From Patescibacteria group bacterium (GTDB lineage Bacteria; Patescibacteriota; Doudnabacteria; UBA920), in NCBI GenBank assembly GCA_036726225.1, contig DAIMCS010000002.1, forward strand, positions 3,994 to 67,993: a stretch of 64,000 bases of DNA, read 5' to 3'. Positions 8,605-48,532 of this stretch are shown in pieces. Position numbers and translations under genes: made by a program. Below the pieces are notes generated by a model, which saw only the letters and a list, made by a program, of their open reading frames with translations, was not told where the DNA came from and made no database searches. How positions within the stretch are numbered: the first letter of the stretch is position 1; the number at the start of each line of letters is the position of its first letter.

Positions 8605-8628
8605 CTGTCAAATGTCAAGACTTGACCC
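8605..8628 (+). repeat. REP-like palindrome (copy A)
   Basis: ctgtcaaatgtcaagacttgaccc. The core gtcaag-a-cttgac is self-complementary. Same motif at 9377..9425, 9511..9530 (inverted) and 10579..10626. Confidence 0.7.
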
Positions 8629-9294: not shown

Positions 9295-9376
9295 TATTTT
9301 GTAGCTCCTTCTGCTACATATTTTAATGTTTGTACTGTTTGACCTTGATTATTCATCACTTGGATTGTTGCTTGCG

Positions 9377-12579: not shown

Positions 12580-12628
12580 TGCTTAAAGGATAATATTAAT
12601 TTGTCAAAGGGCTTTAAGCTGGAATACT

Positions 12629-12853: not shown

Positions 12854-12867
12854 ATAGTTATGCTTAA

Positions 12868-14163: not shown

Positions 14164-14238
14164 GCCAACACCTTCTCCGGGTTTTAGCGAGATTTTATAA
14201 GGCTATTCAGTTGTCAAAGGACTTTAAATTCGCATACC

Positions 14239-14463
14239 TCACTCAGTAAACGGTTCCAGCATATCTTCTGGAGCCAAAGTATCTGAGCCATCTGCAAACT
14301 CAATTGTATAAAATGTTGTACCTATAGACGCATTAAAATGCTTTGAGTCCTGTTCAGTTTTAACAGGCGATATACCGACTACTGCAGCATAAACTTTAGA
14401 AACGACATTTCCGCTTTCATCAAGTTTTTTTAAATAAACACTGTCTCCCCATGTAAATTGCAT
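14239..14463 (-). CDS. Small immunity-like protein (tandem paralog 1)
   Basis: Start placed at internal MQFTWGDSVYLKKLDE. ~75 aa, paralog of 14468..14704 and 12629..12853. Confidence 0.5.
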   Translation of the reverse strand: MQFTWGDSVYLKKLDESGNVVSKVYAAVVGISPVKTEQDSKHFNASIGTTFYTIEFADGSDTLAPEDMLEPFTE

Positions 14464-14467
14464 GTGA

Positions 14468-14704
14468 TTATTCGTTATTAGAAGAAAACGACTCCAGGAC
14501 ATCTTCCCGGACAAATTCCTGCATAGATCCATCACCAAATTCAATATTATACAAATTTGCACCAATAGGAAGTCCAAAGCGTTTTACATCCTCCTCTGTT
14601 TCAACCTGGGTCACCCATATCACTGCCGCAGGAACTTTAGACACTACTTTCCCATGTTCGTCAAGTTTTTTTAAATAAACACTGTCTCCCCATGTAAATT
14701 GCAT
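14468..14704 (-). CDS. Small immunity-like protein (tandem paralog 2)
   Basis: MQFTWGDSVYLKKLDEHGKVV... The 5' DNA (ccatgtaaattgcatgtgatt) is duplicated at 14441 and 14681. Confidence 0.5.
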   Translation of the reverse strand: MQFTWGDSVYLKKLDEHGKVVSKVPAAVIWVTQVETEEDVKRFGLPIGANLYNIEFGDGSMQEFVREDVLESFSSNNE

Positions 14705-14728
14705 GTGATTAAAACTTAAAATTATTAA

Positions 14729-16069: not shown

Positions 16070-16501
16070 TTAGAGGTCTTTAAAAATTTCAGAATCATAT
16101 TCACCTATTGATACCATTACCTGAACATCATCCAATGTGCCACAGTCAAAATATTGATGGAAATCATCACCATCTTTAGCAGAAGCAAAAATATCAAGCT
16201 CATTGATAAATTGTTCAAATTCTTTAGCACCCAAACCCCATTCAAATAAACTATCGTTAATTTTTTTCATACCCGTTACATCAGGAAGAACTTTTAACAG
16301 TACATCGACGTTGGATTTTATAAACATCGGTATTCCTCCAAAATTTACACTTGTTCCGGGTCTTCCTGCATAATCCTTTAATAGATCTCTAAATGAAGCG
16401 AAAGCTAAGGGACTTCCGGAAAACAATAATGTATCTGCGCTTTTAAAATTCTTAAAAAAACCAAAGTAAATTTTATTATCTTGTTTGTTCATATTTATCA
16501 T
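16070..16501 (-). CDS. Putative cognate immunity protein of the full-length Rhs toxin
   Basis: Its start codon overlaps the Rhs stop (ATGA at 16498..16501), implying translational coupling. No known domain. Confidence 0.5.
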   Translation of the reverse strand: MINMNKQDNKIYFGFFKNFKSADTLLFSGSPLAFASFRDLLKDYAGRPGTSVNFGGIPMFIKSNVDVLLKVLPDVTGMKKINDSLFEWGLGAKEFEQFINELDIFASAKDGDDFHQYFDCGTLDDVQVMVSIGEYDSEIFKDL

Positions 16502-32193: not shown

Positions 32194-35100
32194 ATGAGTC
32201 GGATGAAAAGAGTTCTGAAGGTTTCGGCGGTTTTTATTGGAATAGTTTTTTCACAAACCCTAGCGTTTGGGCAGCAGTGCACAGCCGCCAGAGTTACGAA
32301 CGCACAGTTCTCAAGCCCGTTCGGCAATGGAACAGTTTTTAAGACTGGTAGCCCTGGCAGTTGGCATGACGAAAACGCTCACATAGATAATGCAGGTACA
32401 AATGTTTATAGCGCCTGCGCCGTGGATATGAATGTAGGGACAGGTAGCGATGATGAAGGTATGCCTTTGGTTGCGGTTGCAGACGGAACGGTTGTCTACG
32501 CCGACATCAGAAGTGGTTTTGGCAATACTGTCATTATCCAACATTCTCCAAATACACGGAGTCAGCTTTCTCATTTGTATTACAATCCCAAAATCAAACC
32601 TGGTTTGAAAGTTGGGGATATGGTGAGGAAAGCTTCGGTAATTGGGTTTTTGGGTAACACGGGTGGATCGTCTAGCCCTCACCTACATTTCGAATGGCAA
32701 GAGATTGACTCTTTAGATCCGGTAATTCGGGATGATAAAGGTAACACAAGCGACAAATGGAAGTCTTATCACTTTCCACATATGGATGGGCAAATGGTGA
32801 CCAATGGCGGGACGGTTTCTTCTTTCAATGGGAGAATTGTTCCTGATATTGCGGTTACATATGCCGACGGTACATTCGTTAAAGACATTAATAGCACTGA
32901 TATTTACTATGTGGATGGAGGAAAACTGAGAAAATTTGGTTCTTTGGACCACTTTCGTTCTTGGTTTCCGTTCTATACCAATAGTGTTCCTATTGGGGCT
33001 GCAGTGGCTTTGGCAGGAGCTTCGACTATTTCGGCCTACCCAAAGGGAAGCGATATGTCTTTTCGGCCTGGAGTTCTACTGCGGTCCGATAAATTTGCGG
33101 AAAATATTCCCAATTCCATGTTTTATCAAGTCGTCTACGACAATAGCTTAGCCAAAAAAAAGTCCCTAACGTTTGCTCAAATAAATGCTATGGGTTTTGA
33201 AGAAGGCTCTGCTTTGATAGTTAAGGACGCGTTGATTTTAACACTGCCCGAAGCCCCCGATGTAATTATCCCTCCTTATTGCCCTGCAATCACAGCCCTT
33301 CCCGGCGGGAAATTCATGGATGAGAGTGTGGTTTTTACTGTTTCATCTTGCACCACTCCACCTGCGCTCACAGCCATGTGTTCGCCGGCCAGCTCAATTT
33401 TGGTAGCTGGCGACAGCAAGCAGTTCACACTCACCCCCACGGGAGGCACACCGCCGTACAATTATTCTTGGAGCACGGCTAGTTCTGGCATCTTCGTTTC
33501 GGGTTCAGACTCAACTACCAACGTTAGTTTTCCTGCCATGGGTAGTTATATAATTACTGGCAAGATAACAGACAGCGGTAGCGTTTCGGCCGGAACTCAG
33601 CAGACAACCCAGAGTTCATGTTCAGTCCAGGTCAACGGGGTGGTGCCGATTGGGCCGACGGAGTTTTCCAAAACTTCTTTGGCTGCCGATCCAAGCCTTA
33701 TCTCGTATTGGCCGCTTGAAAACACTTCGGACGTCAAAGCAAAAAATCCGCTTACAAACAACGGAGCAAGTTTTGAACCCGCCCAGTTTGGCAATGGCGC
33801 GAATTTAGGTTCAAACAATACAGTCCGTTATTTGACCAGCAAGAACGACCCTCGCTCATACGCTTTTTTGAGCGGGTTTGCCTACAACTTGTGGTACAAA
33901 CCTTCTTTTGCCCCAAGCGGTGGGGCCAGGTGGGAATTAGGCGGCGGCTTTTCTGACCAGGATAAAGTTAACATTCGGATAGACTATTTGGATGACGGTG
34001 GAGTTGCAAAACTGCTGTTCATCTACCAAAAAAATGGCGTGTCCGATACCCAGGTTGCTTATCCAACCACATTGCCCACCAACCTCTTTACCATGTTAAC
34101 TATTACTTACGACGGTTTTACCGTCCGGGGTTTTGTTAACGGCAATGAAGTTGGAAACGTTGCGGCAAGCGGCAGTGGCGTAGGTTTGTACGGTGAGTCG
34201 GGTTTTTCCGTTGGCGCGGCAATCCATGGAGGAAACAAAGCCAGCGGAATAATAGACGACGTAACAGCTTTCAGCCGGCCGCTTAGCGCTTCGGAGGTAG
34301 CGCAAGTTTTTGGCGGGGGCGGAGCTCCAGTTACACCGATTACAGGTCCGGTTGAGCTTTCCGCATCATCCTTGTCAACAGACCCAAACCTCGTTGCCTA
34401 TTACCGTTTTGAGGGTAACAGCAACGACAGCCGCGGCTCTAACCACGGCAGCGGCAATTCGGTTGCCTACTCTACAGCAAACGGCAAATTCGGCCAGGGC
34501 GCGGGCTTTAACGGCCTGTCTTCGAAGGTCGATTTTGGCAACCCCTTAGGTCTACAAATCACCGGTGCCATAAGCATCCATTTTTGGCTTAAGGACAACG
34601 GTTCATTTACAAATCCTGACGTCGTGGTTATGAAGAGCAATGACAGCAACTTGCGTTCCTACGCTGTCTATTTTGACTCCGGTTCGCTTACTGCTAATTT
34701 TTCTAGCGACGGCGGAGGCTCCAATAACTTTATTTTTTGGACGACGGTTAGTTGGGATCAGCAATGGCATATGTGGGATATTGTATTTGTTCCTAACGGC
34801 AGTAATTCCGTCCACAAAATTTACAAGGATGGGGTGCTCCAGCCAGACAACATTAGTTCCAGTAGTTTTAGCGGTACTGCCGTCTACAATTCTGGTTCTA
34901 ACCTGGTTGTTGGCCAAAAGAGCAACGGTGGATGGCAAATGCACGGTGCTTTGGATGACGTGGCAGTTTTTAACAGGGCATTGAGCGCTTCGGAGGTAGC
35001 GCAAGTTTTTAGTGGGGGCGGAGCTCCAGTTACACCGAGTACAGGTACGGTCAAGGTTGATGTCAGCGGCTACAGCGGAACTATTAACTGTAAGCTTAAC

Positions 35101-36120
35101 AGCAACGATCTTTCTGCGCCTGTAACCTGGAACAGCCAGCCCGCGGTTAGTTACACTTTGTCCTGCACAGCTCCCAGCGGTTATTCGATTACTTCAATTA
35201 CGCCTGATCCTACTCAAATGCTTTCTGCGGGAGCAACCGTGACTTTTATGGTAAATTTGGCGGCCGCCCCTACCCCGAGCTTTACGTTTGTTACTTTAAA
35301 CGCCAGCAAAACGGTAGAGGCCGGAAAAAATATCGGGTTTGATTTAAGCTTAAATCCGGTAACAGGTTTTTTTGCCGAGGTTTCGGTGTTCGTCGCCGGT
35401 TTGCCTGCAAACACGGCGGTAGTCAATGCCACTTTAAAATTTTCTGTAGGTCCGGTAAACGGCGCGAATTTTACGCTGACTTTACAGACCTCAGGCAACA
35501 CACCGGTCGGCACACACCCGTTGACGCTTACGGCTCTGGGCGGAGGAATTTCTAAAACCCTGTCGTTAAGCTTAACGGTCACGCCTGCCCCGCCTGCCCC
35601 GCTTTCGGTTAGCTGCTACTTGTCTCCCAATCCTGTTAATTTGGGACAGGGCACTACGCTGTTTGTAAGCGCAACCGGCGGCAGCGGCAGCTATGTTTAC
35701 AGTCTAAACGGAGGAGTTTTCCAGTCCGGCAACAGTTCGGTAGTTATCCCTCCAAATGCCGGAACAGTTAGCTATTCGGCTGTGGCAAAAGACAGTAGCG
35801 GCATTACCGCTTCTGCAAACTGCAGCGTTAATGTCACGGGGGTTGCCCCGGGCATTAGCGGCTCTATTTGGGACAGCCAGCCGACCGGCGGCGTACAGTT
35901 TTCCGGCAATCTTTCCGGAAATGCTTTTACATCCGCCGCAAGCGTTTGGTTTTACGGTCCCGGTTGTAGCAACGGTTGCCAGCATCCTTCGGCCGGAGTA
36001 AGCGTGCTGTCGCTTACGAACATTCGGCTTACCAATGTCCAGTTAGCTTCGGGCAATTGGCAAGCGGAGGTGCGTACGGTTTACGGCACGGCTAAGTCTA
36101 ACATTTTCACTGTAAGGTAG
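32194..36120 (+). CDS. Secreted 1308-aa protein: M23 (LytM-type) peptidase domain + two LamG-like domains + Ig-like domains
   Basis: Signal peptide. M23 motifs (HIDNAGTNVYSACAVDM ... GNTVIIQH ... GNTGGSSSPHLHFEWQ). LamG-like blocks (WELGGGFSDQDKVNIRIDYLDD...IIDDVTAFSRPLSASEV and ...LDDVAVFNRALSASEV). aaggag SD at 32180. Confidence 0.75.
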   Translation: MSRMKRVLKVSAVFIGIVFSQTLAFGQQCTAARVTNAQFSSPFGNGTVFKTGSPGSWHDENAHIDNAGTNVYSACAVDMNVGTGSDDEGMPLVAVADGTVVYADIRSGFGNTVIIQHSPNTRSQLSHLYYNPKIKPGLKVGDMVRKASVIGFLGNTGGSSSPHLHFEWQEIDSLDPVIRDDKGNTSDKWKSYHFPHMDGQMVTNGGTVSSFNGRIVPDIAVTYADGTFVKDINSTDIYYVDGGKLRKFGSLDHFRSWFPFYTNSVPIGAAVALAGASTISAYPKGSDMSFRPGVLLRSDKFAENIPNSMFYQVVYDNSLAKKKSLTFAQINAMGFEEGSALIVKDALILTLPEAPDVIIPPYCPAITALPGGKFMDESVVFTVSSCTTPPALTAMCSPASSILVAGDSKQFTLTPTGGTPPYNYSWSTASSGIFVSGSDSTTNVSFPAMGSYIITGKITDSGSVSAGTQQTTQSSCSVQVNGVVPIGPTEFSKTSLAADPSLISYWPLENTSDVKAKNPLTNNGASFEPAQFGNGANLGSNNTVRYLTSKNDPRSYAFLSGFAYNLWYKPSFAPSGGARWELGGGFSDQDKVNIRIDYLDDGGVAKLLFIYQKNGVSDTQVAYPTTLPTNLFTMLTITYDGFTVRGFVNGNEVGNVAASGSGVGLYGESGFSVGAAIHGGNKASGIIDDVTAFSRPLSASEVAQVFGGGGAPVTPITGPVELSASSLSTDPNLVAYYRFEGNSNDSRGSNHGSGNSVAYSTANGKFGQGAGFNGLSSKVDFGNPLGLQITGAISIHFWLKDNGSFTNPDVVVMKSNDSNLRSYAVYFDSGSLTANFSSDGGGSNNFIFWTTVSWDQQWHMWDIVFVPNGSNSVHKIYKDGVLQPDNISSSSFSGTAVYNSGSNLVVGQKSNGGWQMHGALDDVAVFNRALSASEVAQVFSGGGAPVTPSTGTVKVDVSGYSGTINCKLNSNDLSAPVTWNSQPAVSYTLSCTAPSGYSITSITPDPTQMLSAGATVTFMVNLAAAPTPSFTFVTLNASKTVEAGKNIGFDLSLNPVTGFFAEVSVFVAGLPANTAVVNATLKFSVGPVNGANFTLTLQTSGNTPVGTHPLTLTALGGGISKTLSLSLTVTPAPPAPLSVSCYLSPNPVNLGQGTTLFVSATGGSGSYVYSLNGGVFQSGNSSVVIPPNAGTVSYSAVAKDSSGITASANCSVNVTGVAPGISGSIWDSQPTGGVQFSGNLSGNAFTSAASVWFYGPGCSNGCQHPSAGVSVLSLTNIRLTNVQLASGNWQAEVRTVYGTAKSNIFTVR

Positions 36121-36189: not shown

Positions 36190-37800
36190 TTACGGCACTT
36201 CAATTATTGTAGGGATTCCGGGGCCGGTTTGGAAAGGCAAAATGGGAGTGCAGGCGGAGGTAAATGTCATACCGCTGCCGTTGTTGTAATCTGCCCTAAA
36301 ACAGTTTTGCATTCTTCCGGTTGCGGCAGAATAGCCGGTGGGTATTGCAAGCTGGCCTTCAAAAGTAATTCTGCGAATGCTGGGTAAAGCCCCTCCCGCA
36401 GGAATATTGGGAATGCCGGTAAAGGTAAGCCTTTGGTTGGGCGGTGAGCCCGTAACACTTAAATTAATGCCCACGCTGGCAATGTTAACTTCTCCTGAAC
36501 CGGAATCGTACTTTGCGTTCCATCCGCCCGGAGGCTGTTTTAAGTTGAGCAAATTGTCAGTGAGGGTTATTGTGCTGGCTTGTAAGTTGCCGGTATTACA
36601 CAGGTTAATGGAAAATTTTAAAATATCGTTGAGTTTTAATTTGGTACCGGCAGGCAGGCTGTCGGTTATGCCGCATTGGTTAAAACCAAGCACGTCCCCG
36701 TTTATGGCAACAATGTCTTTGTCAGAAGTGGACAAATTAGCCGCGCAAATGGTATCTGCCAAACCGGCAAATTCAAGCAGGCTAGATTCCCCAACAGCAT
36801 TGTAGGCGCTTGCCCAGTAATAGTAGACAGTGCCCGAAGGCGTGGGCGTGTAGGTGTGGGTTAGTATGCCTGAAACTCCGGCCGAAGGCCCAAAAGTTTG
36901 AAGCAGGTAAGGGGAGCCGGCTCCGGTTGGGCTTGGTGGTGTGCTGTTGTTGGTTCGGTACAAATAAAAGCCGTCTTCGTCATTTGCCTGGTCTTTAAAG
37001 GTCAGCCTTACCTGGCCGCAAGGCACCACGCCTCCGGAAGTCGCCCAGTTGTCTCCCGTGGGGTCGGTTGGAGGGTTTGGCCCTAAAGTGTAAGAAGGAT
37101 AGGAGGGGTAGGTTGGGTAACCCGGGTAGGTTGGATATCCCGGATAAGTGGGGTAGGAAGGATATGTGGGATAAGCAGGATAGCTGGGGTACGAGGGGTT
37201 TCCGTAACTTGGGTAAGAAGGATAGGCCGGGTAGGAAGGGTATGCGGGGTAGGCCGGATAGGTGGGGTAACCGGGATAGGTTGGGTAAACGGGGTAAGCA
37301 GGATAAACAGGATACGTGGGCGCGTATGCCGGATAGGAAGGACAGGCGCCCGTGTTGCTACAGGCTGCTGTGGGTGTTCCCGGGTCGGTACAGGTGTCTG
37401 TTGTGCAAGCGTCGTTGTCGTCACAATCTGCGTCTGTGCTGCAGGCATAGGTTGGGTAAGTGGGGTAAGTTGGAGGATAGGTTGGGTACGAGGGGTAGGT
37501 GGGATAAGTAGGATATGTAGGATAAGAAGGATATGTAGGTGAAGGGCAACCGGGAGGCGGTGGGGTGTCGAAACAGTTGGGGGTGCATTCCCAAATATCA
37601 CACACCGGTGGGCTCACACCGTCACAACCAAGAGGCTCTCCGGCACGACCCATACAGGCCGGTTCGCAGGTCCATTGGTCATCCAAATGGCAAGCATTTG
37701 CGGTTTTGGCAGAAGTTAAAAATAAGAACGTAAAAAAAGCAAAGCAGGAAAGCAACAGTGTAAAAATTTTAATGTTTTTAGCCATAAAGTTAGCCTTCAA
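36190..37800 (-). CDS. Secreted Cys-rich protein with (S/T/A)YP tandem repeats, an FN3-like domain and a DUF11-like C-terminal domain
   Basis: Signal/TM at the N-terminus. Runs of PTYPTYPSYPTYP. C-terminal ~190 aa is homologous to the C-terminus of 44236..47826 (NLSTSDKDIVAING...RRITFE.QL...MQNCFR.DYN.G.GMTF..ACTP.LPF....GTPTIIEVP). Confidence 0.6.
   Translation of the reverse strand: MKANFMAKNIKIFTLLLSCFAFFTFLFLTSAKTANACHLDDQWTCEPACMGRAGEPLGCDGVSPPVCDIWECTPNCFDTPPPPGCPSPTYPSYPTYPTYPTYPSYPTYPPTYPTYPTYACSTDADCDDNDACTTDTCTDPGTPTAACSNTGACPSYPAYAPTYPVYPAYPVYPTYPGYPTYPAYPAYPSYPAYPSYPSYGNPSYPSYPAYPTYPSYPTYPGYPTYPGYPTYPSYPSYTLGPNPPTDPTGDNWATSGGVVPCGQVRLTFKDQANDEDGFYLYRTNNSTPPSPTGAGSPYLLQTFGPSAGVSGILTHTYTPTPSGTVYYYWASAYNAVGESSLLEFAGLADTICAANLSTSDKDIVAINGDVLGFNQCGITDSLPAGTKLKLNDILKFSINLCNTGNLQASTITLTDNLLNLKQPPGGWNAKYDSGSGEVNIASVGINLSVTGSPPNQRLTFTGIPNIPAGGALPSIRRITFEGQLAIPTGYSAATGRMQNCFRADYNNGSGMTFTSACTPILPFQTGPGIPTIIEVP
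37080..37340. repeat. Imperfect 9-bp tandem repeats (coding for YP-triplet repeats)
   Basis: Periodic ggRtaDgNN units on the + strand (ggataggag gggtaggtt gggtaaccc gggtaggtt...). A second shorter block lies at ~37455..37545. Confidence 0.6.
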
Positions 37801-38455: not shown

Positions 38456-39001
38456 TTATCGGTTGAAGCTGATTTGCTCCGCTTCAAACGTCTTCTTGAC
38501 GTTTGAAAGGTAAGCATCGGCCTCCTTGCCTGTAAACCTACCTTGTTGTTGCAGGTCTTCCAGGTACTGAATTTCAACCGACCTACAGCTGTTTTCGTCA
38601 GGTTGCCCTAAGGCATGGCACAGCTCATGGAGCAGTACCGAGGCTACAGACCCGACTGCCGCAGAACGATTTTGCAGATTTTGTGCTTCACGCCAGAATT
38701 TGGTGTCCTGCCTGACGAAAAGCGGAAAATGGATATGGGCTTTCTTGCCGGGCTCTTTGACAAGAACAAAAGCATTCTTGTCTTTGAGTTCAGACAGGCT
38801 CTTTTCCATGCCCGATTCTTTCGCCCACGTCTTGAGGTCTTTTATCAGAAAAATATCCTGCTGTGTGATTGTGATGCCCGTCAGTCCGACGTTCAACAGA
38901 GTAATGGCTTCATCAATCAGCTCCGTTGCTTTGTCCGCAGCACCCAAGGAGGGCGCGCAGATAAAGAACAACAGCACGATGAGTGCGATAATCTTTTTCA
39001 T
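38456..39001 (-). CDS. Small secreted putative Zn-metallopeptidase (HExxH)
   Basis: Signal peptide plus VLLHELCHALGQPDE. Confidence 0.45.
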   Translation of the reverse strand: MKKIIALIVLLFFICAPSLGAADKATELIDEAITLLNVGLTGITITQQDIFLIKDLKTWAKESGMEKSLSELKDKNAFVLVKEPGKKAHIHFPLFVRQDTKFWREAQNLQNRSAAVGSVASVLLHELCHALGQPDENSCRSVEIQYLEDLQQQGRFTGKEADAYLSNVKKTFEAEQISFNR

Positions 39002-39292: not shown

Positions 39293-40570
39293 TTGGTTTT
39301 TGTCAATCCCGCCGTAGAAGAAATTTTAAAATTAGTTATGGTATACTTTAATTCTGAAATGTTAAATTATTTTACAAAAAATCCAAAAAAAGTTTTGCTG
39401 TTGCTAAATATAATTTTGGCTTTGGGGTTGGTTTTTAGTCTGCAAATTATTTGGAAAAATTATCCTCAAAACGAAAATGAAACCGAAAACCTTTTGTTAA
39501 GTTCCGAAGTTTCTAAAATGGCCGGGGAAATTTTTTCAGAGTGCAAAAAATCCAACAGCTGGCACGAGTGCTACAAAGTGGAGCTTTCTAAAACCACCAA
39601 AACTTACGGCCTTAAAACCGGCACTGAAATTTTAAACCTGGTCCAGGCGCAAGACCCCAACAGCAGGAACTGCCATGTCATTTCCCATTTTATGTCCAGG
39701 GAGGCCATAAAAAGAAACCCAAATAATTTAGACCAACTTTTAGACGAGCTGGACGTAAACGCGTGCGGCAGCGGTTTTTTGCACGGGGTTTTGGAAGCTT
39801 ACGTGGGCATGCATCCGGAGCTTAAGATAGAAGACTTTGCCAACGAGGTTTGCAACCGCGGCACAGAGTACAAAAAAAGGATGTGCGCGCATTTTATTGG
39901 CCATGTTTTTTTGCTAAACACAGAAGGGGATTTACAGCTGGCTGTCGGCCTGTGCCATAAGCTACAAGATGCCTGGTTGTTTGACTGTTTAGACGGAGCG
40001 TTTATGGAAGACCATCAAAAACTTGCTTTGGTGGAACACGAAGTGGCCAAGCAGCCGGTGTTAAATGACGAATATATTAAACAAATGGAAAATACATGCG
40101 CTAAATTTAAGCAAAGAGCGGAACTTATGGCTTGCTGGACAGAAATGGCCGAAATGTATGCGCATACTTACGGCTATGACGCGGAAATTATTTACAAAAA
40201 TTGTTTAAGAGCCAAAGATTTGCAGGACCAAAGGGCGTGTTACGGCAAAGGCGTGGTGGTTATGGCAATTTATATGGGCTTTGAAAGTGAGCAAAAAATT
40301 CAAAGTTTATGCAAGCATTACAAAACTTCCCCGCAAGATGAGCAATGGTGCGTTAGCAGCGTTCTTTCGGCATTAATTTATTATTCGCCAAAATTTGTGG
40401 ACCGAGGCATTACCGCGTGCGGTTTAGTTTCACCCGATTTGCAAGCCTGGTGCTTTGAAAAATTGAAAAATGAATTAAAGACTGTTATGCCCGACGCAAA
40501 AGCCCGCCAAGATTTGTGTAACGGATTAAGCGAGGCCGACAAACAAATTTGTCTGAAGTATGAAATATAG
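39293..40570 (+). CDS. Cys-rich repeat protein, paralog A (N-terminal TM anchor, unknown family)
   Basis: TM helix, then a periodic C-x-[HA]-x(2)-[GSA]-H motif (NCHVISHF, MCAHFIGHVF). Paralogous to 40560..41705 and 41702..42919. The true start may be an internal ATG (39338 or 39359). Confidence 0.5.
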   Translation: MVFVNPAVEEILKLVMVYFNSEMLNYFTKNPKKVLLLLNIILALGLVFSLQIIWKNYPQNENETENLLLSSEVSKMAGEIFSECKKSNSWHECYKVELSKTTKTYGLKTGTEILNLVQAQDPNSRNCHVISHFMSREAIKRNPNNLDQLLDELDVNACGSGFLHGVLEAYVGMHPELKIEDFANEVCNRGTEYKKRMCAHFIGHVFLLNTEGDLQLAVGLCHKLQDAWLFDCLDGAFMEDHQKLALVEHEVAKQPVLNDEYIKQMENTCAKFKQRAELMACWTEMAEMYAHTYGYDAEIIYKNCLRAKDLQDQRACYGKGVVVMAIYMGFESEQKIQSLCKHYKTSPQDEQWCVSSVLSALIYYSPKFVDRGITACGLVSPDLQAWCFEKLKNELKTVMPDAKARQDLCNGLSEADKQICLKYEI

Positions 40571-41705
40571 GCTTATTGCATTAATAATTTTACTGGCCGG
40601 GGGTTTTTTGCTAATGAAATTTTTTCCGGCAAAAAAAGTTGAGGGGCCCAAAGTGGAAGCGTCTTTTGAGCAGGCGGAAATTTATATTTCCGAAAAAATG
40701 TTAGCTTGTAAAGACCAACCCCAAAAGAGCTGCTATGAGCTGGCCGCAAAAGATTTTTTAAGCAAATTTTCTTTACCCCAGGTTTTGGAAGTTTTTGCGG
40801 CCAATGAAAAAAAACCGGAATTTTTTACCAAGTGCCATTTAGTGGCCCACTATTTAGGCCAGGAAGCCTACCGGCTTTCCGGCAGCGTGAGAAAAGTTTT
40901 TGAACAAAGCAGCCGCTCCTGTTTGGGCGGTTCGTACCACGGCGCGGTGGAAGGCTACTTTATAGCCAAGGGGCTGAATATAGATATTGATACCAATCCA
41001 AATTTGGGAAAAGAAGTGGCCGGTATGTGCGGCAAGCGGGAAGAATATGCCGCGCCCCAGCAATTTACCGAATGCAATCATGGCCTTGGCCATGCGTTAA
41101 TGTTTATTACCAATAACGATCTTATTAAAGCCTTAAATTTGTGTGACAATTTGGAGAGTTTAAATGAGCGCGAACTGTGTTATACCGGATCGCTTATGGC
41201 CAATTCTGACGGGGGAAAAGACACAGACCATCCTTCTAAATATTTAGACCCCAAAGATCCTTTATATCCCTGCCCGATTTTAGAGAAAAAATACCAAAAC
41301 CAATGTTACACTTATGGCGTGCTTTCGCAGTTCCAGTCAGACTTGGACAAAGCAATTGAACTTTGCACAAAAATTCCGGACGAATTCCAAAGCGCGTGCT
41401 TTAGGACAATTGGCCGGGACCGCACTATGGTGTCTGCAGATGTAAATGAACTTACGGCGCAGTGCCAAAAAGCCCCGGATGAATTTAAAACAGAATGTAT
41501 GAAAGGCACGGCGTATAATTTGGTAATCCGGTTTGGCCCGGGTTCGGAGCTGCCTTTTGAATATTGCGGCATACAAACCCAAAGCAAGGCTGAATGCTAT
41601 GAACAAATTGTCATAGCCACAAGCGGGCAATCGCAGGATAAAACTTTTGTGTCAGCTGTTTGCGGCAAAATACCCGTTGAATTTAAAAACGAGAGGTGCA
41701 ATTAA
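40560..41705 (+). CDS. Cys-rich repeat protein, paralog B
   Basis: KCHLVAHYLGQEA, ECNHGLGHALMF and repeated C-x(3-4)-G motifs. Its start overlaps the stop of paralog A. Confidence 0.5.
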   Translation: MKYRLIALIILLAGGFLLMKFFPAKKVEGPKVEASFEQAEIYISEKMLACKDQPQKSCYELAAKDFLSKFSLPQVLEVFAANEKKPEFFTKCHLVAHYLGQEAYRLSGSVRKVFEQSSRSCLGGSYHGAVEGYFIAKGLNIDIDTNPNLGKEVAGMCGKREEYAAPQQFTECNHGLGHALMFITNNDLIKALNLCDNLESLNERELCYTGSLMANSDGGKDTDHPSKYLDPKDPLYPCPILEKKYQNQCYTYGVLSQFQSDLDKAIELCTKIPDEFQSACFRTIGRDRTMVSADVNELTAQCQKAPDEFKTECMKGTAYNLVIRFGPGSELPFEYCGIQTQSKAECYEQIVIATSGQSQDKTFVSAVCGKIPVEFKNERCN

Positions 41706-42919
41706 AAGGCTGAAAATATATCTTCGTCCGGTTTGGGCGTTAGGCAAAGGTGTAAATAATTTTTTGGGAAATTTTCGCAGGCAGTTTGCAAATTTTTTGC
41801 ATCCAGCCTTTGGCTTAGCATAAAGCCAACGGCTTTAAAACATCCTTCCTGTGCCTCATACAGCAGACCTAAACAATAGTCTGCGGTTTTTTGAGCGTAA
41901 GTGGTTGAATGGTAAATAAGTGTGGCGGCAACGTACCTTGCGCATTTGCTGTAAGCTTTAAGGTCCTCTGCGTAAGGGGTGCACAGGGAGAGTTTTTCGG
42001 CAGTTGGTGAAAATTTTTCAGAAATTACAAGCGAAGAAATAGCCCTAAAATAACAAAGGCGTGCCTGGGCTTTGTGGGGGGCTTTTTGGCAGGCAGAGTA
42101 AACCTGCTTTTGGTCGTATTGGTAATATTCCGCAATAATATGTCCTAAATTGGACCAGCAGGCTTCACTTGCCTCGAGGTTGTTTTTAAAATTTTCGCAT
42201 TGTTTTTTAACTTGCGCAAAACTTTGGGCGTCTTTAGTGGGATTGGGGTGGTTAGTAATGAGCCCGTGTTCAAACAGCATATCTTTAAATGCGTTTTCCA
42301 TAAACATACCGTTGTAACATTCAAAAGCAAGCGGCCCAACCTGCCCGCAGACAGCAGCGGCTTTTTCAATGTCATCTTCAGTTTGGAAAATTAGCATATG
42401 GCCAAAGCCGTGAGCGCAGGCAGTGGAAGTAAGTTTGGGCAGGCTGCCGCAAGTTTGGGTTAAGCTTTGGGCATTAATTGTAAAACTGCTGTCAAAAGCC
42501 AAATGGCCCTCCACTATGCCGTGCAAAAAACCGCCGGCGCAGCCTTCCATAGAAATGTCGGCTTTTTTAATTAGCTGCTGCCAGGAATTAGGGTCTCTTT
42601 TGACTGCGGCAATAGAAATAATATGCGCCAGCCCGTGGCATTGGCGGGTTTGGGAATCCAGTAACTGCAATTCTTTAAGGGTTTGGCTTGCAAATTCAAA
42701 ACCATTTTCTAAAGCCAGCTTGCTGAATTTTTGGCGGTAGCAGTTTTGTTTTTGCGCATCTTGCGCACATTGCTCCTGCAGGTTTTTTGCTTCTGCCGCA
42801 AAATCTAAAAGCTTAACAGGTTGTTTATTTATTTTAAAAAACGCAACCGTTGCAAAAGCAAGAACGGCAGCGAAAAGCAGAACAATTATTTTAATTTTTA
42901 TCGGTCGGGATATAAACAT
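41702..42919 (-). CDS. Cys-rich repeat protein, paralog C
   Basis: QCHGLAHIISIA, ACAHGFGHMLIF. Convergent with paralog B; the two stops overlap by 4 nt. Confidence 0.5.
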   Translation of the reverse strand: MFISRPIKIKIIVLLFAAVLAFATVAFFKINKQPVKLLDFAAEAKNLQEQCAQDAQKQNCYRQKFSKLALENGFEFASQTLKELQLLDSQTRQCHGLAHIISIAAVKRDPNSWQQLIKKADISMEGCAGGFLHGIVEGHLAFDSSFTINAQSLTQTCGSLPKLTSTACAHGFGHMLIFQTEDDIEKAAAVCGQVGPLAFECYNGMFMENAFKDMLFEHGLITNHPNPTKDAQSFAQVKKQCENFKNNLEASEACWSNLGHIIAEYYQYDQKQVYSACQKAPHKAQARLCYFRAISSLVISEKFSPTAEKLSLCTPYAEDLKAYSKCARYVAATLIYHSTTYAQKTADYCLGLLYEAQEGCFKAVGFMLSQRLDAKNLQTACENFPKNYLHLCLTPKPDEDIFSAF

Positions 42920-43367
42920 CTCTTACTATCCACGCTTTGCTTCGAAGGTCGTATTCCGCAGAAATAATTATATTTAAGCCGGCTTTTAGCTCGTTTCTGG
43001 CTTCAGCCATACTGCTTTGGGCGCCGTAGGGAGGGGTGAGTTTGGAAACCCTGCTCTCGCCGCTTAAAGTAAATTTAGGCAGCGAAGCATTGTCTAAAAC
43101 AATTATGTTGTTGCCGCTTTCAAGCGCGGCTATTTTTCCGTTTATGAAATAATGTACGAAAGCCTGGCCAATGCTTGGGTCTGAAAGGGAAATGGGAAAG
43201 TTTGATGTTTCTTCCTGTTTAACTTTTTCCTGGTTGCCGGTTTGTGTGTTTGAAGCCGGAGGCGCTTTTATTTTTAGTTTTGGGCCGGCAATAATTGCCA
43301 GGCTCACTAAGAAAGCTGCCCCTAATATGATAGCAGAAATAATTAAGGGTTTTTTTGAGTCTAACAT
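42891..43367 (-). CDS. Small N-terminally anchored protein (paralog pair with 43376..43819)
   Basis: N-terminal TM. C-terminal WIVRDVYIPTDKN is similar to the neighbour's WIFRDIYILK. Confidence 0.4.
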   Translation of the reverse strand: MLDSKKPLIISAIILGAAFLVSLAIIAGPKLKIKAPPASNTQTGNQEKVKQEETSNFPISLSDPSIGQAFVHYFINGKIAALESGNNIIVLDNASLPKFTLSGESRVSKLTPPYGAQSSMAEARNELKAGLNIIISAEYDLRSKAWIVRDVYIPTDKN

Positions 43368-43375: not shown

Positions 43376-43819
43376 TTATTTTAAAATATAGATGTCCCTA
43401 AAAATCCAAAACCCCTGGGTATCTTCTTTGTCTAACTGCAGGTCCACATGGCTGCCAACTTTTATTTCGCTTGCCGCGGCTTTTTCAAATTGGGTTCCGG
43501 CTTTTTTCCAAATGCGAGTGTCGCTTTTTATGGTAAAATCGGGCAGGCTTAGCTTGCCGGCGTTTTCTAAAATAATTTGCTTGCCGGCATCGGTTGCATT
43601 AACGGCTTTTACGTCGCCTTCAAAACTATACCTTGTAAGACCGGGGCCGGGTTTTTCCGGAAAAACTACCTGTTTGACTGTTGACTCACCCCCTTCATTT
43701 ACTACGGGCGGCGGTTGAGGCGGCGGGTTTACATTTCCGTCCTGGCGGTTTTTTGTAAATATAAACGCTGCTAAAGCAACAACAACTATTACTATTATAG
43801 ATAAGGTTTTTTTGTCCAT
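43376..43819 (-). CDS. Small N-terminally anchored protein (paralog)
   Basis: N-terminal TM, Pro-rich linker, C-terminal domain similar to 42891..43367. Confidence 0.4.
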   Translation of the reverse strand: MDKKTLSIIVIVVVALAAFIFTKNRQDGNVNPPPQPPPVVNEGGESTVKQVVFPEKPGPGLTRYSFEGDVKAVNATDAGKQIILENAGKLSLPDFTIKSDTRIWKKAGTQFEKAAASEIKVGSHVDLQLDKEDTQGFWIFRDIYILK

Positions 43820-43829: not shown

Positions 43830-44222
43830 TTAATTCTCTACCGTAATTATACCACGGATTTGGGCATTTAGGTGGTCATGGAATTTCCAGCTGCCGTTTT
43901 TTTCAAAAACAAAGCTCCATTCCGCATTGGGAGCTATGGGTTTTTGCGGGTCGAACTCGGGGTAAATCCCATGGGTTGGATGCAGGTCGGAAGCCGGCCA
44001 ATGCTCTTTTTCTCCCAAATTTTGGAAAACTACTTTAGTGCACTTTTTTATGTTAAGCGAAGAAGGGTCAAAGCTACTGTCCTTAAGCGCAATTTTAACT
44101 TCTGCATAAATTTGCGGGCAAGCGGTCGGGTTTTGTGGCGGCTTAGTCTCTTTGCTGCAGCCGGCAGCCAGAAAAAATATAAAACTAAAGACTAAAATAA
44201 ATTTTAAGGTTTGAATATACAT
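43830..44222 (-). CDS. Small secreted/lipoprotein-like protein with conserved His/Cys residues
   Basis: Signal-like N-terminus ending LAAGCSKE (a possible lipobox). Residues C...H..H...HDH are present, but no confident family could be assigned. Confidence 0.35.
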   Translation of the reverse strand: MYIQTLKFILVFSFIFFLAAGCSKETKPPQNPTACPQIYAEVKIALKDSSFDPSSLNIKKCTKVVFQNLGEKEHWPASDLHPTHGIYPEFDPQKPIAPNAEWSFVFEKNGSWKFHDHLNAQIRGIITVEN

Positions 44223-44235: not shown

Positions 44236-47200
44236 TTACGGCACTTCAATTATAGTAGGCGTGCCAAGATTTGTAGTAAACGGCAGGAGCGGGGTGCAGG
44301 CGGTTGCAAAGGTCATACCGCCCCCGTAGTTGTAATCAACCCTAAAGCAGTTTTGCATGCGCGCGGTTGAAGCTTTATAACCGGGGGACACCGTTAACTG
44401 GGCTTCAAAGGTAATTCTGCGAATGCCCGGCGGCGGGGCTGCGGCCGGAACGTTGGGCATACCGCTAAAAGTAAGGGTTTGGTTAGGTTCGCTGCCGGAA
44501 ACGCTTAAGCTTATGCCGCTGGCGCCTCCGCTACCCAGGGCGTCTTCTCCTGCGCCGTCGTCGTATTTGGCATTCCAGCCGCCGGCCGGCTCTTTTAAGT
44601 TGAGCAGGGTATCCGCTAAACTTATGGCCGTTGCATCTACCACGCCGGAATTACACAGGTTAACTGAAAACTTAAGCACATCGCCAAGAGCTAAAGTTAG
44701 TCCTGAAGGCAGGGCGTCGGTGACTCCGCACTGGTTGCCCAGGCCGTTGCCAATATTTACCCCGTTTATGGCAACAATGTCTTTGTCCGATGTGTTTAAA
44801 TTTGCGCTGCAAGCGGTTGGCGAAATTGAGGTGTAGGCATAATTGTTTGGATTGGAGCTTAAGACAGAAGGTTCGGTTACGGCGTAAGACTGTACCCAGT
44901 AATGGTAAAGTATGCCCGTTGGCAGCGCCTCGTCTGTGTAAGTGTAAACAGAGCCGGTTAAAGGTTTGGTGGAAGAAGTAATTGTGGTAATTTTGGTTGC
45001 CGTGGACGTGCTGTTTGAAGTATTGCGGAAAATAACCCAGCCGTCTTCGTTGGTTGACTGGTCGGTTATAAGCAGGCGGATGTCTGAACATTCCACAGCA
45101 GCGTTTATTGATGTGTTTTGAGGGACGACTCCCGGAGCCTCAGGGATACCCGGTGTAGTAAAGTTTATGGTAAAGGTTAGGGTTGGTTTTACTGCCAAAT
45201 TTCCGGGAAGCGTCTGGGTTTGGCTGGGAGTGATGGAAGTTAAGTTTGAACCGGCAGGGCCCCCGGTGAAATAAGTTACCGTCCAGTTTCCTTGGGTCAG
45301 ATTTAGGTAGGTGCCGGTGCGGTTTGCAAATTTAACAAAACCCGGATTGCCATCTAAAGGGTTATCATCGCAATAGATATCATCACCATAAATAGTGTCA
45401 GATCCGCTGTCATAGTAAGGAGCGTCTACTCCACACCAGACCGTTTGCCCGCCAAAGTACGAGGGGTTGTTAAAGAGCCACCAGCAAAGAGTTGGCTCAT
45501 TAACGTCACATTCATAGTCGTTTGCGCCCGCCTGTTGGGTAATAATTGCGCCGGGGGACGGCAAGCTAACATCGTCGTTGCCGCTTTCGGCAACCGACGG
45601 GCCGGTTAGCGAATACCTAATATTGCCTCCCCACGGAGCGCCGTCTAAGGTTGCGTTAACGGTTACATTGCCCACGCAATACGGCGTGGTAAAGGACCTG
45701 AAAGTGGGGCTGGCGGTCGCTATTTGCAAGCCGCTGCTGTTATAGGCCCTTACTGCGTAAAATCCAAAGCCGCCGTTGCTCGAATTAACAGTATAAGTGG
45801 TTACGTTGCCGACATTAACGTTAGATGCTTGGGGGGTATCTACCCGGTAATGGTCAACTCCCGGATGCGCGGCCCAGGACATAGTTACGCGGGGTGTGGA
45901 GCCATTGCAGGTTGAGGTTAGGGGGTTAAAAGTAAAGGCAGGCATAGTCACGTTTACAGTTGCCGTATCTGTGTATATTACAGTGTTGGAATTAAAACCG
46001 CTGCCATAAGCGTTAACCCTGAGGGTAAAGAATCCGGCATTGTTGTAGTTGCACCTGTCCCAAAATTCGGTGAAAGCATTTATGCCGTCTACCGATGCGT
46101 TGTAAATATCCTGGTTTGCGCTGTTGGCGCACTGTAGTTGGATGTGGTTGGTATAGAAAGAAACAGCAAAGCCGTTGCTAAAGTAAACTTTCATATCAAC
46201 ACCGGAAATCGGGACGTTGCCGGAGATGTCGTCGCTCCAGTTGGTGTGGTCTGTGGAAAGCTTGAGCACTATGTTTGTGGCTTGTGGGGGCTCGACGAAC
46301 GTTACGTTCACACTGCAGGAAGCGTTTGAGCCCGTGTTATCGGTAACCCCAAATGAGTGGACGCCCGCCGCGTTAAAGGTAGAGGAAAATGTGTTGCCTA
46401 TGTTTTGCCAGTTCGGGTCGCTAACGCCGTCGCGGGTCCAGTCATACGGGCCGGTGCCGCCAACTGCCGTTGCGGTAACGCTTTGGCCGGTTTGGGAAGG
46501 GTTGGGGGAAACGCTGCAGCTAATACCACCGGGCTGGGGAGTTGGGGTTGGCGTGGGGCTTGCGCAAGTGCCGACGCAGAGGTTAGAGCCGCTGCAGACG
46601 GTGTTGTCGGACAAAATTGCGTAACGGTTGTAACTCGCGTCCTGGTTATAAGTTAGCGGACCGGTACTATAATTAGTGGTTCCTCCGGCAACCGGGCCAA
46701 CGTTTTGCGGGCCGCTGCCAAAATTGTCAGTTCCGTACCAGTCAAAAGTAAAGCCGGGCGGGACAGAATTTACTGACCAGGTTGCCGAACCCCCAATTGG
46801 AATAGACGAGGGATCAACAGTAACAGAGCAGGTGCTGCTGTTGGATGATACAGTAACATTACAAGTGCCGGATGTTGATCCATCAGTAACTGTTACTGTA
46901 TAATTTCCTGCCGCGCCATACTGGGCTGCAAAATTATCTCCTGAACCGGAAGAAGGAGTGCCCCCTGGAGCTGACCAATTATATGAGGAGCCTCCACCAG
47001 CTGTAAAGTTTGCAGAAGAGCCAGGTAATACTGTTTGAATATCAGGCGAGCAGGTCACAACCCCCCCCGGTACTGCATTCACAGTTACCTCTACGTCATC
47101 AACCGGATACGGTTCTCCAAATCCGTCCACAACAAATAATGTGTATGTGTAATTTCCTGCAGACAGGTTTGAGTGAACTTCAGAGCCGCTGTCGCCTTCA

Positions 47201-47826
47201 AACAGCTGTGTGCCGTTAACATGGACCGAAGCGCTTTGTCCGGAAGTTTTGTTCCAGGTTATGGTCGGGCTGCAGGGCGCGTTGCAATTTATGGGGTCTG
47301 CGCTTATGGTTCCGCCAATGTCAACGCAGGAATTATTTACTACAATTTCTTGGCTGTTGCAAGTAACAACAGAATAACCAAAGGAAACACTGCCCCAGAA
47401 ATAATTTGGTTCAGTGGTTCGTTTTTGTTGGGCAACCAATGCCAGGGTAATACTGTCGTTAGCTGTGCCGCTGTTGCCGTTAAAAAAGGTTACCGGAATC
47501 CAAACGCCATTTCCTGCGGCTACGTCGCCGCAAGCCTGAGGTGGGTTGGGCTGGTTTACATTCATAACAGTGTTGCCGTTTACCACCGCAGAGTATCCAA
47601 CCTGGTCGTCCCAGGAAATTCCGCTGCCTCGCCAGGCGCTGGATATATAAGAATAGGGGGTTTCCGTTATTGTTTCCGACGCAACGCATTGCTGGTTACA
47701 AATGTCTGTCATAAAACCGTTACACTGCAAAGCCTTAGCGTTGTATTTTACAAAAAATATCAAAAAAGCGGGCAAAACAAAAGCCGCCAGCAACAGTAAT
47801 TTTTTATTCAATGACAACATAGTCAA
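44236..47826 (-). CDS. Giant secreted surface protein (1196 aa) with Ig/PKD-like and FN3-like repeats and a DUF11-like C-terminal domain
   Basis: Signal peptide and many Thr/Ser/Asn/Gly-rich beta-rich repeats. The C-terminal ~190 aa is homologous to the C-terminus of 36190..37800. Its start overlaps the stop of the TPR gene (same-strand gene run). Confidence 0.65.
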   Translation of the reverse strand: MTMLSLNKKLLLLAAFVLPAFLIFFVKYNAKALQCNGFMTDICNQQCVASETITETPYSYISSAWRGSGISWDDQVGYSAVVNGNTVMNVNQPNPPQACGDVAAGNGVWIPVTFFNGNSGTANDSITLALVAQQKRTTEPNYFWGSVSFGYSVVTCNSQEIVVNNSCVDIGGTISADPINCNAPCSPTITWNKTSGQSASVHVNGTQLFEGDSGSEVHSNLSAGNYTYTLFVVDGFGEPYPVDDVEVTVNAVPGGVVTCSPDIQTVLPGSSANFTAGGGSSYNWSAPGGTPSSGSGDNFAAQYGAAGNYTVTVTDGSTSGTCNVTVSSNSSTCSVTVDPSSIPIGGSATWSVNSVPPGFTFDWYGTDNFGSGPQNVGPVAGGTTNYSTGPLTYNQDASYNRYAILSDNTVCSGSNLCVGTCASPTPTPTPQPGGISCSVSPNPSQTGQSVTATAVGGTGPYDWTRDGVSDPNWQNIGNTFSSTFNAAGVHSFGVTDNTGSNASCSVNVTFVEPPQATNIVLKLSTDHTNWSDDISGNVPISGVDMKVYFSNGFAVSFYTNHIQLQCANSANQDIYNASVDGINAFTEFWDRCNYNNAGFFTLRVNAYGSGFNSNTVIYTDTATVNVTMPAFTFNPLTSTCNGSTPRVTMSWAAHPGVDHYRVDTPQASNVNVGNVTTYTVNSSNGGFGFYAVRAYNSSGLQIATASPTFRSFTTPYCVGNVTVNATLDGAPWGGNIRYSLTGPSVAESGNDDVSLPSPGAIITQQAGANDYECDVNEPTLCWWLFNNPSYFGGQTVWCGVDAPYYDSGSDTIYGDDIYCDDNPLDGNPGFVKFANRTGTYLNLTQGNWTVTYFTGGPAGSNLTSITPSQTQTLPGNLAVKPTLTFTINFTTPGIPEAPGVVPQNTSINAAVECSDIRLLITDQSTNEDGWVIFRNTSNSTSTATKITTITSSTKPLTGSVYTYTDEALPTGILYHYWVQSYAVTEPSVLSSNPNNYAYTSISPTACSANLNTSDKDIVAINGVNIGNGLGNQCGVTDALPSGLTLALGDVLKFSVNLCNSGVVDATAISLADTLLNLKEPAGGWNAKYDDGAGEDALGSGGASGISLSVSGSEPNQTLTFSGMPNVPAAAPPPGIRRITFEAQLTVSPGYKASTARMQNCFRVDYNYGGGMTFATACTPLLPFTTNLGTPTIIEVP

Positions 47827-48532
47827 AAGTTAAAGATGTATCCCAAAAAGTAATGGCGTAAGCGTGCTTACTGTCGGCCTTTATTTCCCAATTTTCCGGG
47901 CCGCCCTGGGCGTGGATTGTGTAGTTTAAGTGAGCTGCGGCAAGGGATTTTTTTAGCGCCTGTTTTACCGCGGAAGTCGATTGCAAAAATTCATAGTTAG
48001 CGGCAATGTATTCGGTTATGCCCGTTTCAATGGGGCGCTTTATGGCGTCTTTAAAGCTTAACAGTTTGGGGTCGATTGTAATTTTAAGGCGGGATTCAAA
48101 ATCTTGGCGGCTTATTTGGTATTGCGAAATGTTGGCGTCGTTTAAAACCTGCCGGCCTTGTTTTTGGGTAAGCAGTTCAAGATGGTTTTTGGCAGATACA
48201 TTATTTGGCTCCAGGCTTAACACTTTTTCAAAGCTAATTTTGGCTTCGTCAAATTTGCCCAGGTCAAATTCACACGTGCCTTTAATGACCCAAACGTCGG
48301 AAGCTTCGGGGTAATCTTCAAGAAATTTTGTTGCTTCTGCAATAATCTCCGGTGAGCATTTTTTTTCCACCATTGTTTGCTTGAGCGCCAGAGTCTTGTC
48401 TGAAATTTGCTTTGTTTCCTCGTCTTTATTGCGGTTTAGAAACAAAAAAACAGCAACCGCAATTATTAGCGCTACGCCTAAAATAATAAGAAGATTTTTT
48501 TTATTTTCCATTCCTTTTAGTTTCGTCTCCAA
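47804..48532 (-). CDS. TPR-repeat protein with N-terminal TM
   Basis: TM helix plus TPR-like helical repeats (VIKGTCEFDLGKFDEAKISFEKVLSLEPNNVSAKNHLELL). Confidence 0.55.
   Translation of the reverse strand: METKLKGMENKKNLLIILGVALIIAVAVFLFLNRNKDEETKQISDKTLALKQTMVEKKCSPEIIAEATKFLEDYPEASDVWVIKGTCEFDLGKFDEAKISFEKVLSLEPNNVSAKNHLELLTQKQGRQVLNDANISQYQISRQDFESRLKITIDPKLLSFKDAIKRPIETGITEYIAANYEFLQSTSAVKQALKKSLAAAHLNYTIHAQGGPENWEIKADSKHAYAITFWDTSLTFDYVVIE

Follow-up and report, generated by a model that had tools for sequence, protein, structure and literature searches.

The closest described systems to the locus reported here are the Hcp proteins of Helicobacter and the EfeO proteins. Hcp repeats carry cysteines spaced C-x7-C, and the imelysin fold consists of paired four-helix bundles. 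Two further systems bear on the metal sites: peptidylglycine alpha-hydroxylating monooxygenase and dopamine beta-monooxygenase bind copper at one 3-His site and one 2-His + Met site, and thermolysin-type zinc sites are built from two His and a Glu on the next helix. We analysed three adjacent genes (A, B and C) of a Patescibacteria group bacterium of the Doudnabacteria (assembly GCA_036726225.1, contig DAIMCS010000002.1, positions 3,994 to 67,993 of the forward strand). This whole stretch of 64,000 nucleotides is called the window, and positions given for it are counted from its first letter. The three genes encode paralogous Cys-rich helical proteins, with a cupredoxin-like gene close by. We consider it just short of probable that the helical family and the cupredoxin would form an extracytoplasmic two-part module for metal handling or redox chemistry, with copper the most likely metal. 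The three genes and their products are as follows.

39293 to 40570, plus strand: paralog A, A/C-type, 425 amino acids (aa) from a TTG start, anchor at residues 35-53, 18 Cys
40560 to 41705, plus strand: paralog B, B-type with a 'PLYPC' motif, 381 aa, anchor at residues 5-23, 18 Cys
41702 to 42919, minus strand: paralog C, A/C-type, 405 aa, anchor at residues 9-27, 18 Cys

The open reading frames (ORFs) of 425, 381 and 405 aa named in an initial annotation of this DNA were all confirmed in the ORF listing, as were the overlap of A and B (11 nucleotides (nt) shared) and the convergence of B and C with overlapping stops (4 nt shared by the stop codons). The proposed N-terminal transmembrane anchor corresponds to a single strongly hydrophobic, Cys-free segment in each protein. 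Paralogy was also borne out: A, B and C were homologous over their whole length at 19-28% identity, all 18 Cys aligned, and the alignment held 41 invariant columns that included every Cys. The conserved C-Y pair that had been pointed out is C60-Y61 in C numbering and is kept in the family. The Cys richness of the three proteins is beyond chance, because Cys made up 4.2-4.7% of their residues versus 0.86% in the 36 other ORFs of the window.

Two of the starts needed attention. A promoter-like site upstream of A has a -10 box that ends at 39282, directly before the TTG at 39293, which makes the TTG start doubtful; the ATG at 39359 (M23) is the likelier start. Public gene calls begin B at 40614, giving a protein of 363 aa from which the anchor is removed. 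The 381-aa form overlaps the stop of A and agrees with the N-termini of homologs, which support the longer form.

The description of an unrecognised family held, with no significant Pfam, NCBIfam or PDB-sequence match for A, B, C or distant relatives. For A and B, searches of Pfam and NCBIfam came up empty even at E ≤ 1; C had a few chance-level matches (E 0.04-0.23), far below the curated cut-offs. Relatives from Methylocystis rosea and Solirubrobacterales showed no Pfam match and one chance-level NCBIfam match, seven multi-domain relatives searched against Pfam gave nothing useful, and the family profile had zero matches among PDB sequences at E ≤ 10. Neither a profile match nor a specific fold match linked the proteins to a characterised HEAT- or Sel1-like family. 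None of 43 close relatives was named or carried a Pfam domain, and more than 200 relatives bore only the source names 'hypothetical', 'Uncharacterized protein' or 'plastocyanin'. Searches of the literature on PF03640/COG4315, on Patescibacteria cupredoxins, and on Cys-rich proteins of the Candidate Phyla Radiation (CPR) or of DPANN turned up no account of the helical family.

A hidden Markov model search of 1.84 billion cluster representatives found 5,488 family members (50%-identity clusters) at E ≤ 1e-3, 2,976 at E ≤ 1e-10 and 480 at E ≤ 1e-30. In GTDB species genomes, a scan located 58 loci, mostly in Patescibacteria (labelled Saccharibacteria, Paceibacterota, Ryan-, Doudna-, Nomura-, Davies- and Zambryskibacteria). 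Archaeal loci were found in DPANN and Methanosarcinales, and scattered loci in Rubrobacter, Solirubrobacterales, Longimicrobium, Nitrospirae, Chitinophagaceae and the cultured Methylocystis rosea SV97. Family loci in other genomes are given L numbers below (for example L007). The A/B/C family is large, un-annotated, membrane-anchored, extracytoplasmic and all-alpha.

The AlphaFold2 model of C, built from 45 input sequences, was all-alpha with about 22 helices (predicted local distance difference test (pLDDT) 90.4, predicted template modelling score 0.84), and a model of the core fragment of C had a pLDDT of 87.6. In these models the family would form an alpha-solenoid of about 9-10 hairpins. 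About eight Cys-led helical repeats had been proposed in the initial annotation; the helical, repeat-like character and the regularly spaced Cys were found, while the count came to about 9-10 rather than eight. The first Cys of each pair ends a short helix and the second is residue 7 of the next long helix, with a spacing of C-x(9-13)-C. In C the second Cys stand at 60, 94, 127, 168, 201, 254, 289, 326, 360 and 392, recurring every 34 aa or so. Eight pairs follow this rule (51/60, 157/168, 191/201, 241/254, 277/289, 313/326, 349/360 and 381/392), and a ninth, 94/127, is located at the N-termini of two neighbouring long helices.

Conservation was counted in an alignment of 312 diverse family sequences in C numbering. 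The Cys count was even in 252 of the 312. Both Cys of the 51/60 pair were absent in 14 sequences and only one in 5; both Cys of 94/127 were absent in 16, and in Methylocystis and Longimicrobium a new nearby Cys pair substitutes for it. By analogy with the Sel1-like Hcp proteins, we infer that the Cys pair of each hairpin would form a disulfide staple. When the ten hairpins were compared with one another by hhalign, the best two matches reached 88% and 59% probability and all others stayed below 40%. Internal sequence repeats were dropped on the strength of these two modest matches, and since the hairpin profile matches are weak the repeat architecture rests on the periodicity of helices and Cys, not on sequence. 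Foldseek searches of the PDB with the full C model returned generic solenoids only (TPR, HEAT and ARM; best E = 0.011), with query-normalised template modelling (TM) scores of 0.17-0.27. The His-rich core fragment matched generic solenoid fragments only (best E = 1.4).

The strongest conservation lies in hairpins 2-5, where the family core comprises six His, one Met, two Glu and four Gly. In the three paralogs the core residues are found at the following positions.

39671 to 40039, plus strand: core of A, with C127-H128...H132; H164/E168; C198-x-H200..H204; M238-E239; H249
40833 to 41231, plus strand: core of B, with C92-H93..H97; H127-G; C172-x-H174..H178; L-M213-A; H224
42266 to 42640, minus strand: core of C, with C94-H95..H99; C127..G130..H133-G134..E137; C168-x-H170..G173-H174; C201..G204..F206-M207-E208; H218

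H95 and H99 were each present in 299/299 aligned sequences, H170 in 310/310, H174 in 309/310 and M207 in 307/310. The glycines were nearly as constant (G204 309/310, G173 306/310, G134 288/300, G130 290/296). H133 was kept in 284/302, with Met now and then in its place, and E208 (295/309), E137 (262/303) and H218 (240/298) varied more. B has only six His in total, and these are the six family-conserved positions. Eighteen columns of hairpins 2-5 had an entropy below 1 bit, and hairpins 6-10 kept only the Cys pair in each.

The motif C-x-[HA]-x2-[GSA]-H had been reported in many of the repeats. It proved not to be periodic, and there are instead two motifs, each occurring once per protein: C-H-x3-H (NCHVISH, KCHLVAH and QCHGLAH, one per paralog) and C-x-H-x2-G-H (MCAHFIGH, ECNHGLGH and ACAHGFGH, one per paralog). 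The related suggestion of a metal- or disulfide-stabilised repeat fold was right about the regular Cys, whereas the His form one cluster in hairpins 2-5 and do not extend over the repeats. Ligand-like residues occur at +1/+5, +6/+10, +2/+6 and +6/+7 from the second Cys of successive hairpins, offsets that place them at matching heights on four successive long helices with i/i+4 spacing. Judged by its conservation, the His/Met/Glu cluster of hairpins 2-5 looks like a functional site.

Such a cluster could instead belong to an extracellular enzyme, one that would use His/Glu acid-base chemistry or a lone gluzincin-like Zn site to act on a polymer of the envelope or of a host, for instance peptidoglycan, polysaccharide or protein. 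The spacings H170-x3-H174...E208 and H95-x3-H99...H133/E137 resemble two-His-plus-Glu zinc sites, the core is more conserved than the remainder of the protein, and the window encodes an M23 peptidase-LamG protein and two small HExxH proteins. The motif, however, is H-G/F-x-G-H rather than H-E-x-x-H, with no catalytic Glu after the first His, and neither family nor fold searches matched a peptidase, lyase or glycosidase. B-type proteins also do without E208, and fusion to a cupredoxin is unusual for hydrolases. We regard this alternative as distinctly unlikely.

The cupredoxin-like gene also bears on the proposed metal-handling or redox module.

43830 to 44222, minus strand: 130-aa cupredoxin-like protein with a possible lipobox (FLAAGC), 0.9 kb from C

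The 130-aa protein matched Cupredoxin_1 (PF13473) at 1.3e-7. Its profile matched amicyanin at E = 2.4e-7 and the extra cupredoxin domain of a nitrite reductase at E = 1e-8. In the alignment to amicyanin, Cys92 corresponds to D116, His95 to Leu, and Met98 to I/M/V/H. The subfamily has a sharply conserved motif, HWPAS-x2-HPTH-x-IYPEFDP...WSF-x-F...G-x-W-x-[FY]-HDHL, with H81, H84, H115 and H117 invariant. Because the type-1 ligands are lost, the protein is no classical blue copper electron carrier; by its sequence it descends from blue-copper proteins, has a harder His/Asp site and is no plastocyanin. Among about 990 close relatives the most specific label was 'plastocyanin' (Joint Genome Institute annotation of several members). 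A genome survey assumed that single-cupredoxin 'plastocyanin' proteins are electron carriers in Patescibacteria, and models that read Asp-for-Cys cupredoxin genes as electron carriers may need revisiting (PMC12931201).

The initial annotation listed the cupredoxin-like gene as a mere neighbour. It is present as listed, and its role as a regular partner, fused to the family in many lineages, had been missed. Separate Cupredoxin_1 genes adjoin the arrays in the window and in L007, L008 (two copies), L009, L010, L015, L025 and L050, and the layout of L007 equals that of the window, including two small anchored proteins. The partner domain is fused N-terminal to the family domain in Rubrobacter, and further fusions were found in Saccharibacteria-labelled, Davies-, Zambryski- and Limnocylindrales genomes, in DPANN archaea and in Methanosarcinales. 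A cupredoxin domain was fused to the family in 27 of 59 distinct loci and encoded by a separate gene nearby in 8 more. Fusion together with adjacency is a classic Rosetta-stone link between the helical family and the cupredoxin domain.

The same association would fit a haem or other cofactor protein acting as electron-transfer partner of the cupredoxin, with His/His or His/Met axial ligands between helices and Gly making room for the porphyrin. The invariant Met and His and the Gly beside His agree with this idea, as do the association with a cupredoxin-derived domain and the survey's treatment of Patescibacteria 'plastocyanin' proteins as electron carriers (PMC12931201). The family nevertheless has no CxxCH motif and matched neither a cytochrome family nor a cytochrome fold, and fast electron transfer needs type-1 copper ligands that are gone from the partner. 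Haem synthesis and respiratory chains are generally missing from CPR and DPANN genomes, which also counts against haem. We judge this reading very unlikely.

A search of the ORFs of all loci with hmmsearch showed that the family nearly always occurs in tandem arrays of 2-5 paralogs (four in L007, L008, L009 and L037; five in L018 and L020). Two subtypes were seen, an A/C-type restricted to CPR and a B-type ('PLYPC') also found outside CPR, and the order of an A-type followed by a B-type gene was kept in L007-L010, in L025 and in the window. Many proteins had two family domains and others four, about six or about nine to ten, with 3,580 aa for the largest. Because of these arrays and fused multi-domain proteins, the paralogous helical domains are likely to function jointly.

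Among 144 immediate neighbours the top Pfam family was PF03640 (Lipoprotein_15) with 8 cases, followed by Cupredoxin_1, PilB-type ATPases and NusA. PilB was present in 10 and PilC in 9 of about 55 loci, and NusA in 4; we rejected PilB/PilC and NusA as functional links, since only a minority of loci have them and their presence there resembles synteny shared within lineages. The non-CPR neighbourhoods (Rubrobacter, Longimicrobium and Gemmatimonadota) held unrelated housekeeping genes.

A disulfide-stabilised scaffold or adhesin of TPR/Sel1-like type, which would organise surface proteins or pili of an episymbiont and in which the conserved His would serve packing or an interface, accounts for part of these data. 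The solenoid fold is generic, with Foldseek matches to TPR, HEAT and ARM proteins and a repeat period of about 34 aa; the neighbours are often giant surface proteins (PKD, SdrD_B, DUF5667), a TPR protein or PilB/PilC, and multi-domain giants of up to 3,580 aa exist. Against this, six His, a Met and four Gly are invariant between sequences of about 20% identity whose surface otherwise drifts, which is unusual for scaffolds. The repeated fusion to a His-rich cupredoxin derivative is left unexplained, no TPR or Sel1 Pfam match was obtained even at E ≤ 1, and the PilB/PilC and NusA neighbours show the minority, synteny-like distribution given above. We therefore consider a scaffold rather unlikely.

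The preferred reading, a two-part metal-handling or redox module, can be put as follows. A ladder of His, Met and Glu (H95-x3-H99, H133-G-x2-E137, H170-x2-G-H174, M207-E208 and H218, flanked by invariant Gly) would bind metal at one or two predicted sites, one of 3 His + Glu and one of 3 His + Met (+ Glu). The helical domain would work with the Asp-for-Cys cupredoxin and its H-P-x-H / H-D-H set, and the two might cooperate in the manner of EfeO, as a cupredoxin with a helical metal-binding domain, or as a redox enzyme. Several helical paralogs or domains would operate jointly at the cell surface. Copper is the likeliest metal because of the cupredoxin ancestry, the His/Met chemistry, the occasional swap of His to Met and the extracytoplasmic location.

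A number of observations weigh against this reading. The clade of B and its close orthologs has Ala at E208. The four ligand-bearing helices lie side by side in a solenoid, and one compact site is not guaranteed by such an arrangement. No cupredoxin was within reach in 24 of the 59 loci, including all those of Longimicrobium, Solirubrobacterales and Methylocystis, and the partner is without the canonical copper ligands, which confines the case for copper to ancestry and His/Met chemistry. No metal transporter, chaperone or metal-sensing regulator recurred among the 144 immediate neighbours, and an Rfam search over 36-51 kb of the window gave no match and no riboswitch.

A more specific version of the module would be a new class of extracellular metalloenzyme. 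It would have a non-coupled binuclear centre (3 His / 3 His + Met, probably copper) on a disulfide-stapled solenoid, would be fed or gated by a type-2-like cupredoxin, would occur in arrays and in giants of up to about 10 domains, and would be used at the CPR/DPANN host interface. We hold this version to be unlikely.

Several other genes near family loci were recorded. The PF03640 neighbours are membrane-anchored proteins of about 170 aa (L052 9186-9698, L022 10341-10907, L023 2411-2920, L064 986-1495 and others), and they include one in a Chitinophagaceae genome. In L008, at 8433-10250 on the plus strand, a 606-aa fusion of HTTM and a DCC1-like thiol-disulfide oxidoreductase follows directly after the cupredoxin-like gene, near the four-gene array; it could be an oxidative-folding helper for the Cys-rich family proteins. 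A domain that starts with A-H-G (AHGxGGxIxKxVDNYxIDxxY) was found after the signal sequence and ahead of the family domains in Methanosarcinales (L044 7305-8930 and 8884-11796), and as a separate gene near the array in L008 (7448-8002). It has no Pfam match, and our guess is that it is a beta domain.

In the window, C lies in the same-strand gene run that the initial annotation described. The genes for the TPR protein, the 1196-aa protein, the cupredoxin-like protein and the proteins of 147 and 158 aa are followed by C on the minus strand, with gaps of ≤13 nt or overlaps. The members of this apparent operon besides C and the cupredoxin-like gene are as follows.

42891 to 43367, minus strand: 158-aa N-terminally anchored protein, between the cupredoxin gene and C
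43376 to 43819, minus strand: 147-aa anchored paralog of the 158-aa protein
44236 to 48532, minus strand: upstream genes, for a 1196-aa Cys-rich PKD surface protein and a 242-aa anchored TPR protein

The two small anchored proteins are paralogs, as had been stated, with 32% identity, and homologs of the 158-aa protein stand at the same position in L007, L009 and L025. The 1196-aa protein had been called a DUF11 giant, which Pfam did not support: it gave PKD domains only. A promoter-like site lies ahead of the TPR gene at 48582-48553. The 1196-aa protein (44236-47826, minus strand) shares a C-terminal domain of about 290 aa, ending in PTIIEVP, with a 536-aa protein (36190-37800, minus strand) at 52% identity. 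Both are rich in Cys, at 3.9% in the 536-aa protein and 2.5% in the 1196-aa protein, and P-[ST]-Y-P repeats form a long run in the former. Y/P/T-rich repeats like these were also seen in a Methylocystis member of the family, as its TPYETPYP tail, and in a protein encoded beside the L004 array.

The cluster is flanked by two exported HExxH proteins, one with HELCH (181 aa, 38456-39001, minus strand) and one with HEIGH (522 aa, 48681-50249, minus strand), both with weak Matrixin-like Pfam matches only. Just upstream, at 32194-36120 on the plus strand, a 1,308-aa protein with Peptidase_M23, SprB-repeat and LamG domains adds to the regional concentration of large surface or lytic proteins. At 16498-24462 (minus strand) a 2,654-aa protein with SpvB, FG-GAP, RHS-repeat and LamG domains resembles a Tc/Rhs-type toxin. 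It is followed, at 11245-16033 (minus strand), by three ORFs of 431-444 aa, one of them with an RHS repeat, which may be spare toxin-tip cassettes.

CPR and DPANN genomes are tiny, yet many keep 2-5 tandem copies of the family and some carry giant fusions; this persistence suggests that the module meets a need at the cell surface. The His6-Met cluster and the Asp-for-Cys cupredoxin point to metal chemistry undescribed on such a fold. Knowledge of the function would annotate thousands of 'hypothetical' genes, would correct the 'plastocyanin' labelling of partner-type cupredoxin genes, and possibly might show how episymbionts obtain or use extracellular metals.

Comparison with known systems removed several candidate memberships. 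TPR, HEAT or ARM membership was rejected in the absence of a significant superposition (Foldseek best E = 0.011, TM 0.17-0.27). Hemerythrin/HHE, type-3 copper proteins (tyrosinase/hemocyanin) and ferritin-like bundles were rejected with no Pfam match and no significant PDB fold; one ferritin construct stood at ranks 40-41 of the core-fragment Foldseek search (E = 5.2, TM ≤ 0.19). A LanC-like toroid, considered for its G-x-x-G, H-G and C-H-G motifs, gave no LANC_like Pfam match at E ≤ 1, and membership of the imelysin/EfeO M75 family or of the gluzincins has motif resemblance without profile or fold support. The one defining feature of a known family that we observed was the cupredoxin fold of the partner.

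Peptidylglycine alpha-hydroxylating monooxygenase and dopamine beta-monooxygenase have a like ligand inventory (a 3-His site and a 2-His + Met site), a likeness in counts only, but they have a beta-sandwich fold and no homology to the helical family. The partner is homologous to amicyanin and plastocyanin with the same length of ligand loop, but in contrast to type-1 copper proteins it lacks the His-Cys-His-Met set and has the invariant H-P-x-H and H-D-H. The Hcp proteins (HcpB/HcpC), to which A, B and C would be similar, are exported alpha/alpha solenoids with a period of about 34-36 aa and one Cys pair per repeat, which staples its two helices. They differ in that A, B and C matched no Sel1 (PF08238) or TPR profile even at E ≤ 1 and space their Cys as C-x(9-13)-C versus C-x7-C, and in that Hcp has neither the invariant His/Met cluster nor a cupredoxin partner.

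EfeO differs from the family as well: no Peptidase_M75 (PF09375) match was found, the motifs are H-G-x2-E / H-x3-H and not G-x-H-x-x-E, the fold is a solenoid with 9 Cys pairs versus paired four-helix bundles, and neither EfeU (FTR1) nor EfeB (DyP) was among the 25 most frequent of 98 Pfam families in the 144 neighbours. It is like the proposed module in being extracytoplasmic and in joining a Cupredoxin_1 domain to an all-helical domain with a short His/Glu motif, and here a PF13473 gene stands in the operon of C and a cupredoxin is fused to the family in 27/59 loci. These nearest analogies, the Hcp-type stapled solenoids and the EfeO-type pairs, may indicate how the module works and not what it is. 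EfeO is the best analogy for how the module could operate, with one domain that processes the metal and another that holds it.

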